Positions 2,466 through 12,690 of a DNA stretch of 64,000 nt are shown here, one piece after another; the first letter of the stretch is position 1, and every line of letters starts with the position of its first letter. A program made the position numbers and the translations under genes. Source of the DNA: Spartobacteria bacterium (GTDB taxonomy: Bacteria > Verrucomicrobiota > Verrucomicrobiia > Chthoniobacterales > UBA6821); the NCBI GenBank assembly GCA_947471565.1, contig CANIVT010000007.1, positions 6,909 through 70,908 of the forward strand, written 5' to 3'. A model generated the notes under the pieces. It was not told where the DNA came from. It saw only the letters and a program-made list of their open reading frames with translations, and ran no database searches.

Positions 2466-2907
2466 TCAGGCAGGAGCTAAAGTAGCGCGGATTTTCAGAT
2501 CCGTTGCGACAATGAAGCCCTTGGTCCATGAGCGCGCCTCCTCCATGGCGAAGAGTGCAGATATCCTCTCCTCAAGGGCACGCCTTGAAGGGTCGCGCAT
2601 CCTGATCAGCAGGATCCCATGATGCGTTCCGGGAGCGAATTTACGGATATCGGAGAAATCCAGATCTTGGGTGATCAGGAAGCGTCCATCCATTTGGGCT
2701 CTTTCCCAGACGATCGCATCGGGTTTGCCATTGACCCCTTCATCCTCAACTGTGTCGGTTTCATGGCCAAGCCGCGACAGAATCCCCACCAGGGTGGCAG
2801 GCAAGTTTTGTATGCTGCTCTCCCCCGAGAGAAGCACCCTTCGGGTCTGGCTTCGCCAGCTACAACTCAGCCTACCTTGGCCTCGTTTCATCCAGCTTGA
2901 TCCTCAC
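2466..2907 (-). pseudogene. DUF5615 PIN-like toxin interrupted by a 79-bp insertion
   Basis: GTG at 2907 gives MRIKLDE, then the insert (2808-2886), then NLPATLVGILSRLGH..LITQDLDFSD; the original frame hits TAG inside the insert. Confidence 0.8.
2808..2886. mobile_element. 79-bp palindrome-rich insertion (REP/MITE-like), possible 3-bp TTT target duplication
   Basis: splits the conserved LDE/NL motif; hairpins CCC-TTC-GGG, CTGGC-TTC-GCCAG and TCTC-CCCC-GAGA. Confidence 0.6.
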
Positions 2908-3143
2908 GCCGCTACCGGGACGGGTGGCAAGGGAAGATCCTCCTCGGCTGAGGAAGCAGCATAGGCAATCACAGCCCGAATAGCCTCATAGGAAAGGGTC
3001 GGAAATGCCTTGAGGATCTCCTCGATGGAGTCTCCCTCTGCAAGCGATGCCAGAACGGTACGCAGAGTCACCCTGGTTCCCCGGATCACGGGTTGTCCCC
3101 CGCAGATCAACTTGTCGGAAACAATGTAATCCTTGAATGACAT
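2904..3143 (-). CDS. DUF433 family antitoxin
   Basis: ICGGQPVIRGTRVTLRTVLASLAEGDSIEEILKAFPTL; stop overlaps the toxin GTG. Confidence 0.92.
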   Translation of the reverse strand: MSFKDYIVSDKLICGGQPVIRGTRVTLRTVLASLAEGDSIEEILKAFPTLSYEAIRAVIAYAASSAEEDLPLPPVPVAA

Positions 3144-9064: not shown

Positions 9065-9129
9065 TAGTACATTCTTTGCAGTAATTTGGTTGTCCAAGAA
9101 CACTTATCTTGCATGTGTGTTTTTATTAC

Positions 9130-9216
9130 GAGACTCGGGAGATCGGATGGAGAGCAAGGCGTGAGAGCGAAGCTGTAGTGAACTACTGCGAGCGAACGAC
9201 AACACAGCTATCCGCC
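9130..9216 (+). repeat. ~87-bp structured dispersed repeat, copy 1
   Basis: 37/50 identity to 12105-12154; shared GGATGGAGAGC and GTAG-loop-CTAC stem. Confidence 0.8.
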
Positions 9217-9737
9217 GATATCCCGAGTCTAACTGATTTGGCCCATTGGAGGGAGCTTTTCACCACCTTCCCCTCTCTATTCACGGTCCCCCTGATCTCC
9301 TGAAGAAGCCCTCTGTATTCTCCAAGAATCCTCAGCGCATCCTCGCCCATCGCCCTTCCCTCAAAGAGCTCCCGGGGTCTTGACTGGAAATCCAATCCGG
9401 CCTGCACGTCCCGAGACATCAGGGGGACTCCCAGGTCAGCATTAGAGAGGAGTAATCTGCGATCCAGATCTACCTCCACAGAGCACCCCTCTATCAGGGA
9501 TAACTCCCCTCCCCCTAGGTCGAGATGGAGGATGGAAATCATCTTCCGCTCCAGATCCCAAAGATCACCGAGCTTCTCCTCAGAGACGCCGAGATTCCGT
9601 AGATCACGAATCTTCCTCAGGAAGGCCTCGTAGCACTCGGGGTACTGCTCAAGAACAGGGAGACCGAACCTTTTACGCATCCTGCTGATCCAGAGGACGG
9701 GGCGGCCGAGCTTTTCTGACAGTTCAGATAGGGTCAT
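9183..9737 (-). CDS. hypothetical protein (N-terminus possibly HTH-like)
   Basis: 184-aa ORF; its 5' end recurs as a diverged copy at 10390-10445. Confidence 0.7.
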   Translation of the reverse strand: MTLSELSEKLGRPVLWISRMRKRFGLPVLEQYPECYEAFLRKIRDLRNLGVSEEKLGDLWDLERKMISILHLDLGGGELSLIEGCSVEVDLDRRLLLSNADLGVPLMSRDVQAGLDFQSRPRELFEGRAMGEDALRILGEYRGLLQEIRGTVNREGKVVKSSLQWAKSVRLGISADSCVVVRSQ

Positions 9738-9747
9738 TGAGGGAGGC
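9692..9747 (-). repeat. 56-bp direct repeat, copy A (5' end of the 9183-9737 gene)
   Basis: 46/56 identical to 10390-10445. Confidence 0.88.
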
Positions 9748-9776
9748 GCTGGCAGCGCGGTTAAAAAGTGAAACGT

Positions 9777-9876
9777 TGGAAGGTTACAAGGTAAGAACCA
9801 GATCCGTGAGTTTGGAATCCTACAACCTCACCTGGGTCACCAAGTGTCCTAGGGAAGCGCTGGAAGGTTACAAGGT
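9777..9876 (+). repeat. two exact 16-mers TGGAAGGTTACAAGGT
   Basis: at 9777-9792 and 9861-9876. Confidence 0.8.
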
Positions 9877-9934
9877 GGGGCTGAAATACCCTGTTCACCT
9901 TGATTTCAGTGTCATCTAATCGTAATGTCGCACA

Positions 9935-10132
9935 ATGAGTATTCAGGAAATCGAAACCGCTGTGGCGAATCTCTCGCCTGAGGAGCTTTCCGTCTTCTCC
10001 GGATGGTTTGAGGAGTTCGTCGCGGACCAGTGGGACCGTCAGATCGAGCGTGATGCGGCGGCCGGGCGCCTGAATGAAGTACTGGAACAGGCCAAACAAC
10101 ATCGGGAAGCGGGTCGCTGTATCCAGCTTTGA
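9935..10132 (+). CDS. putative antitoxin
   Basis: MSIQEIETAVANLSPEEL..WDRQIERDAAAGRL; promoter TTGATT-N17-TAATGT-6 nt-ATG. Confidence 0.8.
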   Translation: MSIQEIETAVANLSPEELSVFSGWFEEFVADQWDRQIERDAAAGRLNEVLEQAKQHREAGRCIQL

Positions 10133-10389
10133 ACCACTACGCCGACCCGGATTTCTGGGAAGCCTATAACAGGCTTCCCGACGTTGTTCGCGAACTTGCT
10201 GATAAGAACTTTGCCCTACTGAAGTCCGATCCCTCGCATCCCTCCCTTCGACTGAAGAGGATCGGGCCGCTCCATTCGGTGCGGGTGGGACTTCACTACC
10301 GTGCACTGGCCTCGGATCACCCAGATGGTCTGCAATGGTTCTGGATCGGTCACCACGCCGACTACGACCGCCTAATCTCCGGGAAATAG
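10129..10389 (+). CDS. RelE/ParE/HigB-like toxin
   Basis: FWEAYNRLP..LLKSDPSHPSL..SVRVGLHYRALA..WFWIGHHADYDRL; TTG start overlaps the upstream stop. Confidence 0.82.
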   Translation: MNHYADPDFWEAYNRLPDVVRELADKNFALLKSDPSHPSLRLKRIGPLHSVRVGLHYRALASDHPDGLQWFWIGHHADYDRLISGK

Positions 10390-10445
10390 AGAGTACGGGG
10401 CGGCCTAGTCGTTCTGAGAGATCTGAAAGGATCATTGAGGGAGGC
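10390..10445 (-). repeat. 56-bp direct repeat, copy B (orphan gene start MILSDLSERLGRPVL)
   Basis: diverged copy of MTLSELSEKLGRPVL. Confidence 0.88.
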
Positions 10446-10545
10446 TGTTGGGGAAGGCTGTTGGGGAAGGCTGTTAGGCTGAAGGCTCTTTGGCTGAAGG
10501 CTGAAGGCTGAAGGCTGTTAGGAGAAACTGAAGGGGAGATGGCAA
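10441..10545 (+). repeat. tandem AGGCTGA/AGGCTGTT heptamer-type repeats
   Basis: gaggctgttggggaaggctgtt...ggctgaaggctgaaggctgaaggctgttagg. Confidence 0.9.
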
Positions 10546-10608
10546 CTAGGAGTTGAGGTCGAGCGTGCCGAAGTTGACGGGGGCTGGATGTAGTAGTAGG
10601 GGTGAAAG

Positions 10609-10824
10609 ATGACTGTCGCTGAGCTCCGCCTGCTGCCATCGGCTGAAAAGCTGAAGATCATTGAAGCCCTCTGGGGTGATCTGGCTGCGGATAGCGACTC
10701 CTTTGAAAGCCCCTCCTGGCATGGTGAGGAACTCCTCAAGACGGAGGTCGCACTGACGTCAGGCACAGTTGAGGTCTTGGATTGGCAGGCTGCCAAGAAG
10801 GAGCTTCGGGCCAGATTTGAATGA
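10609..10824 (+). CDS. addiction-module antitoxin (TIGR02574-like)
   Basis: LPSAEKLKIIEALWGDL..SPSWHGEEL..DWQAAKKELR. Confidence 0.88.
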   Translation: MTVAELRLLPSAEKLKIIEALWGDLAADSDSFESPSWHGEELLKTEVALTSGTVEVLDWQAAKKELRARFE

Positions 10825-11120
10825 GGATCAAGATTCTGAGGTCAGCCCTTGAGGATCTGGCCACAGCAAGGGAGTTCTACGACAGCCAATCCGATGGGAT
10901 TGGAGACTATTTTTTCGATTCTCTTTTCTCCGAGATTGATTCCCTGACTTTGTACGCAGGGATCCATCCGCTCAGATTCGGATACCACCGGATGGTGGTG
11001 CAGAGATTCCCCTACTGCATCTACTATCGCATCTCGGATGAGGTGGCGACGGTGTTCCGGGTGCTCGATGCCCGCAGGAATCCCTCCTGGATCAGAAGAA
11101 GTCTGAGTGAACAACGCTGA
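10821..11120 (+). CDS. RelE/ParE family toxin
   Basis: ALEDLATAREFY..FPYCIYYRI..VFRVLDARRNP. Confidence 0.9.
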   Translation: MRIKILRSALEDLATAREFYDSQSDGIGDYFFDSLFSEIDSLTLYAGIHPLRFGYHRMVVQRFPYCIYYRISDEVATVFRVLDARRNPSWIRRSLSEQR

Positions 11121-11929: not shown

Positions 11930-12000
11930 GAAAATAGGCTCTTAGGCTGAAAGCTCTTAGACTGAAGACTGTTAGGAGGAGCTGAAGGGGAGCTGGGTAA
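11930..12000 (+). repeat. heptamer-like intergenic repeat
   Basis: aaaataggctcttaggctgaaagctcttagactgaagactgttagg. Confidence 0.8.
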
Positions 12001-12104: not shown

Positions 12105-12192
12105 GAGGCTCGCAAGCTTGGATGGAGAGCTAGGCGGTCAAGTGAAGGCGTAGTAGTCCTACGCCGAACACAGACCAACGCGGCTATTCGCC
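12105..12192 (+). repeat. ~87-bp structured dispersed repeat, copy 2
   Basis: GGCGTAG-TAGTC-CTACGCC stem; similar to 9130-9216. Confidence 0.8.
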
Positions 12193-12215
12193 AAGATCGT
12201 GAGACTCACACCTCC

Positions 12216-12464
12216 TTAGTCCTCGTAGTGGACGGCCTCGCACAGGAGGCTATCCCTCAAGACCCGGGCAATGCCCGAGTCGCTGGTGTGGAGGCTGCGG
12301 CGCACCCGGCGCTTGGTGTGGTCGGGCAAGTGCTCGGTGTAGTGGACCCACCAAGTGCCATTATTATTCCAAAAATGGTGAAATGGGTTAGCTGTGGTCC
12401 TGATGGAGAGGACCGGCCTGTCGATGGTTGCTGTGCTCGGGTGGATTGTATTCGATGCGCTCAT
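12216..12464 (-). CDS. small hypothetical protein resembling an integrase arm-type DNA-binding domain
   Basis: 82 aa; HHFWNNNGTWWVHY..KRRVRRSLHTSDSGIARVLRD. Confidence 0.7.
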   Translation of the reverse strand: MSASNTIHPSTATIDRPVLSIRTTANPFHHFWNNNGTWWVHYTEHLPDHTKRRVRRSLHTSDSGIARVLRDSLLCEAVHYED

Positions 12465-12548: not shown

Positions 12549-12684
12549 CGAGAAGCCTGGAGAGATTTTTGTTCGGAGGATTTCTCCCTCCGCACATCGA
12601 CCGGCTTTCACCGATCAGCCACCGTGGGATTTCTCCGTCCCCGGTTGGCATCCTTTGGTATCACCCAAAGGCATTCCTGATGCT
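12549..12684 (-). ncRNA. putative riboswitch/attenuator-like leader RNA (unassigned)
   Basis: four consecutive hairpins, three with GAAA loops, between a sigma70 promoter and a terminator. Confidence 0.55.
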
Positions 12685-12690
12685 GATACT

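Follow-up and report, generated by a model that had tools for sequence, protein, structure and literature searches.

A toxin-antitoxin cassette between two copies of a gene start in a freshwater verrucomicrobial genome: probable insertion with long target duplication

The entry into chromosomes of cassettes that lack mobility genes of their own is poorly understood; toxin-antitoxin and defence genes spread nonetheless. Tyrosine integrase elements found in tRNA genes target the end of the gene and carry a replacement copy of it. In naturally transformable bacteria, homology-facilitated illegitimate recombination combines a homologous anchor with a join at 3-10 nt of microhomology. Insertion with long target duplication (ILTD) was described for restriction-modification (R-M) gene complexes (Nobusato et al., 2000, Gene 259:99; Furuta, Abe & Kobayashi, 2010, PMC2853133). 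Its mechanism is unknown even for R-M genes, where host recombination is suspected (PMC2853133).

The locus described here was found in a window (the whole stretch of DNA that was analysed, 64,000 nucleotides) from a lake bacterium of the Verrucomicrobiota. It comprises a gene, referred to here as gene X, a ParE-like toxin-antitoxin cassette (TA1) and a second, orphan copy of the gene X start. The features are as follows.

9131-9230, no strand assigned: E100, a 100-nt hairpin with 16-nt terminal inverted repeats, overlapping the last 16 codons of gene X
9183-9737, minus strand: gene X, an open reading frame (ORF) of 184 aa, the intact gene with the duplicated start; putative HTH-like helical N-terminal part
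9692-9747, minus strand: repeat copy A, the resident gene X start, ATG at 9735-9737 (repeat family D3 and genome-wide search)
9748-9934, no strand assigned: spacer between the repeat copies, holding element U, a motif, U' and an upstream box
9767-9792: element U (D5 repeat)
9838-9853, minus strand: motif CCTAGGACACTTGGTG, which holds an imperfect GGACAC-N3-GTGTCC palindrome (here GTGACC)
9851-9876: U', a partial copy of U (D5 repeat)
9898-9909: conserved TA1 upstream box CCTTGATTTCAG, common to the TA1 copies of genomes G010 and G006
9935-10132, plus strand: TA1 antitoxin, an ORF of 65 aa without a Pfam family
10129-10389, plus strand: TA1 toxin, 86 aa, ParE-like (PF24732 ParE_like, 30.5 bits, cut-off 24.4)
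10390-10445, minus strand: repeat copy B, the orphan gene X start, ATG at 10433-10435, truncated after codon 15-16
10442-10522, no strand assigned: heptamer/15-mer tandem array, unit AGGCTGTTAGGCTGA (TRF)
10609-11120, plus strand: TA2 cassette, with an Unstab_antitox antitoxin (10609-10824) and a ParE toxin (10821-11120) identified by Pfam

The first-pass annotation had proposed that about the first 15 codons of gene X and the bases upstream of them recur at 10390-10445, and that a toxin-antitoxin pair lies between the two copies. Both proposals were borne out. In a repeat search, the two stretches were found to form a direct repeat with 46 of 56 bases identical, which runs from 10 nt 5' of the ATG through 15 codons and one further base (-10 to +46) and encodes the peptides MTLSELSEKLGRPVL and MILSDLSERLGRPVL. 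The 642-nt insert between them consists of the TA1 pair and 187 nt of its upstream spacer, and the orphan is joined to it by a 4-nt microhomology, AGAG (10390-10393), at the cassette end. Within TA1 the start of the toxin gene overlaps the antitoxin stop by 4 nt; the toxin scores above the curated cut-off for the ParE family, and a small upstream antitoxin gene shares one operon with it. TA2 lies outside the repeat pair and occurs in other arrangements in genomes G001 and G008. A long antisense ORF (9761-10639) passes through the orphan start.

A further proposal, that the last codons of the toxin are read in antisense from the orphan (SISR against WISR), did not hold. The detected repeat ends at 10390, one base past the TAG of the toxin, and the 12 nt beyond it match gene X at only 6 of 12 positions. 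Moreover, the C-terminus LISGK* is also present in the cassette of G005, which adjoins no orphan, while the copy in G006 ends in LISGT*. The toxin-end codons therefore belong to the cassette.

Searching the whole 2.28-Mb genome with the 56-base repeat returned these two copies only (E 1e-9 for the second). The possibility that the orphan is one member of a dispersed paralogue family, which the first-pass annotation had named as a potential refutation, was thus examined and rejected. That the resemblance is due to chance, a dispersed repeat or an assembly artefact is of negligible probability. The region is rich in short repeats (arrays and E100), and a Logan contig considered as a different arrangement (L075) proved to be chimeric, a heptamer array linking it to a pyruvate dehydrogenase locus of another contig. 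Against this stand the significance of the second copy and the lack of a third, together with a structure that is the same in independent ENA, NCBI and Logan assemblies and is conserved in a second species. In fact, assemblies made independently from several samples carry the orphan-cassette arrangement at 99.7-100% identity, which excludes an assembly artefact.

Searches for the hallmarks of known mobile elements were negative. No inverted repeats were found to bracket 9748-10389, and the duplication is 56 nt in place of 2-15 bp, which does not correspond to a DNA transposon or MITE. No recombinase gene was present among the ORFs of the insert (ORF list and Pfam), tRNA and Rfam scans detected no tRNA or att-like RNA gene near the start repeat, and a Ku gene for NHEJ was not found. 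By the definition of Furuta et al. (2010, PMC2853133), which was drawn up for restriction plus modification genes and is applied here to toxin plus antitoxin, ILTD is recognized by repeats of more than 30 bp, an insert of less than 20 kb with a complete addiction unit and without mobility genes, low copy number, and duplications that vary across sites; each of these was found for TA1. The definition also asks that the repeat align with one copy of the sequence at the corresponding site of a related genome without the insert.

The orphan is therefore best explained, and with reasonable probability, as the fossil of an earlier 5' end of gene X, left behind when TA1 was inserted with a long target duplication. 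A segment of about 0.64 kb, comprising the ParE-like TA1 and a promoter-like spacer with U, the motif and U', would have entered gene X after codon 15-16, and with it the stretch from -10 to +46, a minimum of 56 nt, would have been duplicated. Owing to this duplication, gene X would have remained whole with a newly copied start, while the old start and its heptamer-array leader would have been stranded across the cassette. Since no recombinase is encoded in the cassette, the insertion was probably the work of host recombination. The sequences show that the cassette later passed between related species by homologous recombination, and addiction to TA1 would oppose loss of the insert through recombination between the repeats.

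Gene X itself gave few clues to its function. Matches were found in 17 of 61 related genomes, all 17 in the genus of the window, and three copies are present in this genome. No Pfam family passed the threshold, PADLOC gave a single weak match to a control protein (E 0.017), and a profile search of PDB sequences returned chance-level matches only. The AlphaFold2 model was poor (pLDDT 55), with confident helices only in about the first 70 residues. Several relatives contain fragments of gene X, and in G005, G008 and G009 gene X stubs are fused to E100. The latter element has a second copy in the window at 12106-12206, 24 copies in the genome, and representatives in all 23 genomes of the genus. 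Among 35 metagenome loci, most have a DUF4236 gene upstream of gene X, directly so in many.

The number of gene X copies and fragments, and the stubs joined to E100, lend themselves to another account, in which two gene X copies once stood in tandem and the arrival of TA1, by deletion or replacement, left only the first 15-16 codons of one of them. This account is improbable. No body or 3' remnant of gene X lies between the orphan and TA1; instead, the orphan abuts the toxin stop in two species. Starts of the other paralogues are far more diverged (at most 25 of 46 positions identical), and stubs of differing length at other cassette boundaries are what repeated insertion would leave.

Position also bears on this question. 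In the second species, G001, the orphan was found downstream of DUF4236 and a TA3 antitoxin. Since DUF4236 is the usual upstream neighbour of gene X, the G001 orphan marks the normal, ancestral position of the gene X start, which argues against a lost tandem copy. G001 carries the identical junction between toxin stop and orphan, AAATAGAGAG followed by TACGGGG, and beyond it a decayed orphan with a 3-nt deletion and then the array. Moreover, the intact gene X of G001 has a heptamer array directly upstream, the arrangement that had been predicted for a relative from the sequence of the window. The array at 10442-10522 is accordingly proposed to be the former upstream leader of gene X, now joined to the orphan; arrays of period 7-8 number about 355 in this genome. 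Two further short start stubs were found in G001, where they bound a pair of 95 and 105 aa that appears to resemble BrnT/BrnA.

Comparison of the alleles revealed a more complex history for the orphan. A recombination breakpoint was located at codon 6/7: the toxin-side half is near-identical between the two species, and the array-side half is lineage-specific. One crossover within the stub has thus made the orphan a mosaic, and the stub has since provided the homology through which the cassette was exchanged. The two copies in the window differ at 10 of 56 positions, 4 nt of which fall in codons 9-10. There the orphan (CGA CTA) matches L089, L026 and G001, and the resident copy (AAG CTC) matches L079, L080, L082 and L092. 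The dN/dS comparison of the copies, suggested as a check in the first-pass annotation, gave 0.14 (Sd 6.5, Nd 3.5). Neutral drift of both copies was rejected (P = 0.007), but the value is equally compatible with a neutral orphan beside a constrained resident gene and with two copies that each had a function at one time, and thus gives no means of choosing between the models.

This split of the two copies between allele classes at codons 9-10 would fit a start supplied by a donor as well as, or better than, duplication in place. Under such an account, a related strain supplied DNA in which TA1 and the spacer were accompanied by a gene X start of its own; this DNA was joined homologously within gene X on one side and illegitimately, at AGAG inside the resident start, on the other. 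The orphan is then the displaced resident start, the working start is of foreign origin, and nothing was duplicated in place. Apart from the allele classes, which occur elsewhere, the account draws on the microhomology junction lying exactly at the toxin stop and on the breakpoint inside the orphan, evidence that recombination does occur in such short homology. A comparable case is an extra copy beside the L083 cassette, which at 91% is more diverged than the orthologous flanks of L083 and L081 (94-97%), as would be expected of a copy introduced by a donor. On the other hand, the 10 nt upstream are common to both window copies, and Val14 to these and the G001 orphan; neither feature occurs in any other group-1 allele sampled. 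The account would also require a donor with TA1 beside each of the three unrelated targets at which the cassette has different long repeats. Displacement by donor DNA is consequently a serious but rather unlikely alternative.

L083 and G001 each carry, at the edge of a cassette, a unit of motif and U homologous to that of the spacer. A promoter and terminator scan of 9100-10700 gave no sigma-70-type match; a promoter role of U or of the array is therefore only conjectural. The palindrome within the motif might suggest that a site-specific recombinase of integron or integrase type acted in trans, with the repeats as att sites that are perhaps centred on GGACAC-N3-GTGTCC. In L083 compared with L081, a cassette with a small ORF and a putative zeta-toxin-like ATPase has the palindromic motif on both sides, and the motif also adjoins TA1 in the window and in G006. 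As a general recombination site, however, the palindrome had to be rejected: at up to 2 mismatches it has three copies in the genome, none of them at the WYL site or other cassettes. The repeats that flank TA1 differ wholly between sites, cassettes occur in both orientations, and within the first 14 kb of the window the sole integrase-like sequence is a fragment of 82 aa that resembles DUF6538 weakly (E 0.0098). A recombinase in trans is thus very improbable.

Further genomic analysis revealed that TA1 recurs in other settings. The toxin is present in 5 of 23 genomes of the genus, and in four other genomes the pair has been kept together; the antitoxin shows 83-97% identity in G005, G006 and G001. 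Four genomic contexts are known within the genus, three of which have a different, locus-specific direct repeat of 53-126 nt. These flanking repeats are unrelated in sequence: 56 nt in G000/G001, 126 nt at 90% identity in G005, and 53 nt at 79% in G010. An NTase cassette at the WYL gene shows the same behaviour: its repeat measures 158 nt (98%) in this genome, and in G001 it is another one, of 101 nt. The first-pass annotation had seen the same logic at the WYL gene and at gene X, and the parallel holds, as both loci have an addiction cassette between copies of host-gene sequence (158 nt at 98% against 56 nt at 82%). Its inference of an older divergence at gene X also stands, given a junction common to a second species. 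The 82% identity is nevertheless not a simple clock, because the orphan is mosaic and the resident allele class differs at codons 9-10.

All contigs of the same species hold the insert at gene X. In most relatives the gene X start occurs once and TA1 is absent, but they are other species with different DNA upstream. No near-isogenic empty site was found, and exact-protein look-ups with gene X and the WYL protein returned the filled arrangement only. For the WYL cassettes, G005 was considered as a source of an empty site and discarded, its spacers being too diverged for base-by-base alignment. Across the genome, repeats of 40-200 nt flank HipBA, AbiE-like, DUF5615/DUF433, HEPN, ORF6N and AAA_14 genes, and about 8 of 14 repeat-flanked loci enclose toxin-antitoxin or defence-type genes. 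It is tentatively suggested, at less than even likelihood, that such cassettes move in this genus mainly by recombinase-free, target-duplicating insertion, with gene ends and spacers rich in repeats (heptamer/octamer arrays and E100 hairpins) as landing sites, the long repeats as homology arms for transfer into related genomes, and addiction retaining an insert that would otherwise be unstable.

The locus is a genuine further example of the ILTD pattern already described for R-M genes. Comparisons of R-M loci had revealed that pattern by 2000, and the same footprint is seen here in another phylum, with a classical toxin-antitoxin pair as cargo. A gene start can thus be what is duplicated, in which case the host gene survives, and the leftover stub can later serve, as read from its sequence, as a crossover site in the exchange of the cassette from one species to another. 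Annotators should not call genes at orphan starts or at long antisense ORFs across them, such as 9761-10639. If the interpretation is correct, about 8 cassettes in 2.3 Mb and one cassette at three targets would provide a natural system in which to study the mechanism of ILTD.

Among known systems, integron cassettes resemble those described here in being small, with or without a promoter, often of toxin-antitoxin type, and accumulated at one locus. They differ in that the flanking repeats here are site-specific pieces of host gene or spacer and both orientations occur; moreover, no integron integrase or attI was found among the ORFs scanned in the first 14 kb of the window. As in integration at tRNA genes, the target gene stays intact through a second copy of its end, and the displaced or duplicated piece forms a direct repeat across the insert. 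Here, however, both an integrase and a fixed att core are lacking, and the same cassette has unrelated repeats at each site. Homology-facilitated illegitimate recombination would yield an AGAG junction such as that at the toxin stop, but it usually deletes or replaces recipient DNA, whereas a duplication is seen here; ComEC and DprA are both encoded in the genome, although they are nearly universal and thus uninformative on competence. R-M ILTD differs in its cargo, here a type II toxin-antitoxin pair, in the duplicated piece, here a gene start, and in the host, here a freshwater member of the Verrucomicrobiota. In addition, the copies here are old, mosaic and 82% identical, published cases being mostly above 90%, and near-isogenic genomes offered only filled sites, which leaves membership of the class probable. 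In its architecture the locus agrees with R-M ILTD: a small addiction-type unit devoid of mobility genes is flanked by direct repeats that exceed 30 bp, these repeats derive from duplication of target sequence that sometimes overlaps a gene end and is unique in the genome, and their length and sequence vary by site for the same kind of cargo.

The start of gene X is present twice in the window, as the first-pass annotation had claimed: a repeat search recovered a 56-nt direct repeat family (9692-9747 vs 10390-10445) identical at 46/56 positions. The antitoxin/toxin pair (TA1) said to lie between the copies was likewise found there. The features concerned are:

9183-9737, minus strand: gene X, a 184-aa ORF
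9692-9747, minus strand: copy A, the resident start; 10 nt upstream, ATG, 15 codons and one base of gene X; reads MTLSELSEKLGRPVL
9935-10132: first ORF of TA1 (antitoxin), 65 aa
10129-10389: second ORF of TA1 (toxin), 86 aa, passes Pfam ParE_like
10390-10445, minus strand: copy B, the orphan start; reads MILSDLSERLGRPVL, then directly into the end of the toxin gene
10442-10522: heptamer/15-mer array next to the orphan
9131-9230: copy of E100, a 100-nt hairpin element
12106-12206: second copy of E100

When 81 nt around copy A were used as query, only two sites were found in the whole 2.28-Mb assembly (the second at E 1e-9), and the next-best matches, of 14-17 nt, were at chance level. Independent ENA, NCBI and Logan assemblies have the same layout in contigs that are 99.7-100% identical, and the arrangement is therefore neither chance nor an assembly artefact. 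The last codons of the toxin (SGK*) had been proposed to be read from the antisense of the orphan, and this part of the annotation was not borne out. The repeat ends at 10390, one base past the stop, and direct reading of the next 12 nt gives a match to gene X at 6/12 only. Moreover, the TA1 cassette of genome G005 has the same C-terminus (LISGK*) without an adjoining orphan, and that of G006 ends in LISGT*. The junction is a 4-nt microhomology, in which the cassette end ...AAATAGAGAG and gene X ...CCAGAG(G/T)ACGGGG on that strand give the product AAATAGAGAGTACGGGG.

A genus search with the orphan itself as query identified a second species (G001), whose locus was assembled from three contigs with end-to-end overlaps of exactly 141 nt. 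The order there is gene X, spacer, a 95-aa + 105-aa pair, TA1, orphan start, array, DUF4236 with the antitoxin of a further pair (TA3), a YbjN-like gene, the pair TA2, and a metallophosphoesterase (MPE). The 95-aa + 105-aa pair resembles BrnT/BrnA; this and the YbjN-like gene were named from sequence, and the pair was not scanned. The junction of toxin stop and orphan is identical in both species. The G001 orphan is decayed, with a 3-nt deletion (it reads MAHSEPSERLPPVLS), and a heptamer array (G001:C69, 1757-1815 of locus L121) replaces the middle of its TA1 toxin gene (corresponding to 10160-10300 in the window). Therefore, neither is under coding selection there, and arrays can take the place of coding DNA.

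Gene X is confined to the window's own genus among 61 related genomes searched, with three copies in the window's genome. A Pfam scan gave no family at E 0.01 or better, and the AlphaFold2 model is poor outside the N-terminal stretch of about 70 residues, which is helical. A DUF4236-like gene stands upstream of gene X in genome G007 and in most of 35 metagenome loci, and adjoins it directly in many of them. At other loci cassettes are wedged between the two, one being TA3 (an Unstab_antitox/ParE-like pair) and another holding a zeta-toxin-like ATPase, both named by sequence reading and not scanned. The window's genome is without DUF4236 at this locus. In the reading direction of gene X, the G001 orphan lies downstream of DUF4236/TA3 and the array, where gene X starts in other genomes, and thus occupies the ancestral position. 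Heptamer repeats joined directly to an intact gene, which the annotation had suggested seeking in relatives, were also found: the G001 gene X has an array directly upstream (CAT/TGAGAAAGGC/TGTTAGGCTGAAGGC...). In G001 the boundaries of the additional 95-aa + 105-aa cassette carry two further start stubs, both very short (GGGTCAT/TGAGGGAGGC...). The simplest reading is that the 5' end of gene X was hit by repeated insertion, each leaving a stub.

TA1 was found in 5 of 23 genus genomes, and its flanking repeats are specific to the site. In G005 a 126-nt spacer segment stands on both sides of it (copies 90% identical). In G010 the flanks are two 53-nt copies of a degenerate E100-like segment, which resemble each other more than they do eight other E100 copies of that genome. 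A flanking repeat was looked for around TA1 of G006 and not found. We consider it fairly probable that the copy pair at gene X arose by in-place duplication, since all 10 upstream bases are common to both window copies, and Val14 to both and to the G001 orphan; no other sampled group-1 allele has either. Alternatively, donor DNA may have supplied the working start, the orphan being the displaced resident one. Codons 9-10 (CGA CTA in the orphan, AAG CTC in the resident) each fit a different allele class of other species, and in the only filled/empty pair available at the locus (L083 vs L081) the extra copy beside the cassette is 91% identical, vs 94-97% for orthologous flanks. This alternative is nonetheless unlikely, given the shared upstream bases and Val14, and it accounts poorly for unrelated repeats at three targets. 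Between the copies dN/dS is 0.14, which rejects neutral drift of both (P = 0.007) but is equally compatible with a neutral orphan beside a constrained resident.

Comparison of the window with G001 further shows that the orphan start was later exchanged in part. The final 90 nt of the toxin gene match at 88/90 positions, and identity across the flanking TA2+MPE block is only 84%. Within the orphan, codons 7-16 differ at 1/25 sites and codons 1-6 at 7/18 (Fisher P = 0.006). The toxin-side half therefore travels with a recently exchanged TA1 segment and the array-side half is each lineage's own, which places the breakpoint of a homologous crossover inside the stub. Thus, the 82% identity of the copies is a mix of age, decay and allele exchange, and is not a clock.

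Addiction and defence genes form an island over the first 13 kb of the window: a WYL regulator (80-1108), a DUF6036 nucleotidyltransferase pair, DUF5615/DUF433, VWA and SRAP proteins, AbiEi/AbiEii, UPF0175/DUF3368, a metallo-beta-lactamase-fold protein, an HNH protein, gene X, TA1, TA2 (Unstab_antitox/ParE, 10609-11120), MPE and LexA. Arrays of period 7-8 number about 355 genome-wide (TRF). E100 has 16-nt terminal inverted repeats and fold z-scores of -4.2 and -5.0, with 24 copies in the window's genome and a presence in 23/23 genus genomes; it resembles dispersed elements of the MITE/REP kind. Gene X takes its last 16 codons and its stop from one copy, and this overlap explains the repeat 9130-9179 vs 12105-12154.

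Several other observations were made. Gene X truncated after about 28-30 codons and fused directly to E100 occurs in G005 (L037 7049-7235, downstream of an intact DUF4236 gene), G008:C50 and G009:C210; these are a different kind of stub. The motif CCTAGGACACTTGGTG(TCC), which is based on a palindrome (GGACAC-N3-GTGTCC), is found upstream of members of the gene X family and at the edges of cassettes in relatives (window 9838-9853, minus strand; genome C4:47012-47027; L083 1447-1465, 2540-2560 and 2708-2726). A helix-turn-helix protein, perhaps that of gene X, may use it as an operator, or crossovers may occur there preferentially. Array ends bracketing TA2 and MPE (10483-10542 and 11936-11996) have a 61-nt stretch in common (84%), including the non-array tail CTGTTAGGAG.A.CTGAAGGGGAG.TGG, and may stem from another old duplication or belong to a single array family. 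A 292-aa open frame (9761-10639, minus strand) crosses TA1, orphan and array in antisense; public assemblies annotate a protein there (224-253 aa in L072, L076 and L077), which is almost certainly spurious. A SAM-I/IV riboswitch (12558-12688, minus strand) barely exceeds the Rfam gathering threshold (42.6 vs 41.1 bits). Genes for methionine or SAM are absent downstream on its strand, where there is only an ORF of 82 aa (12216-12464) weakly matching DUF6538 (integrase N-terminal); the island may have displaced the gene that the riboswitch regulated.

Small addiction units that carry no mobility genes sit between long direct repeats, and each site has a repeat of its own. At the WYL gene, the DUF6036 cassette has 158-nt flanks (98%) in the window; in G001 its flanks are an unrelated 101 nt (94%), and the cassette lies in the opposite orientation. 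The DUF5615/DUF433 pair (2466-3143) lies within a 32-nt direct repeat (2369-2400/3229-3260, 91%). It is the window's third cassette with flanking repeats and directly follows the orphan copy of the 3' end of the WYL gene. Whole-genome self-comparison gave 34 direct-repeat pairs spaced 0.3-4 kb, and 14 loci were left after filtering (repeats of 40-200 nt, identity at least 80%). About eight of these enclose toxin-antitoxin or defence-type genes and four enclose ordinary genes, the rest being assigned to neither class; the repeats are thus associated with addiction genes genome-wide. Besides the two cases in the window, the eight comprise:

C1:153042-156411: HipBA
C1:248175-249719: AbiE-like pair
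C1:309233-310291: DUF5615/DUF433
C12:2948-3663: small RHH-like gene, a possible antitoxin with no Pfam match; repeated here is a Clp-like gene's 3' end
C12:28644-33371: ORF6N with AAA_14/DUF4143
C14:39265-41126: HEPN gene

Host recombination would have inserted the cassette with a long target duplication, and gene X would have been rescued by a fresh start with a new promoter-like spacer, in which a simple scan detected no promoter. The toxin-antitoxin pair may stabilise the repeat-flanked insert, whose repeats could act as homology arms for spread to related genomes. The footprint of cassette insertion at this locus is real and well-supported, and is a further example of a known pattern. Insertion with long target duplication has been published for R-M genes (PMC2853133); in the literature that could be searched, no description of it for classical toxin-antitoxin pairs was found. 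The cassettes described here follow the same pattern, and at this locus the cargo is such a pair. New aspects are this cargo class, the phylum, and the fact that a gene start was duplicated instead of a gene end; the later reuse of the stub as a crossover site is a useful demonstration.
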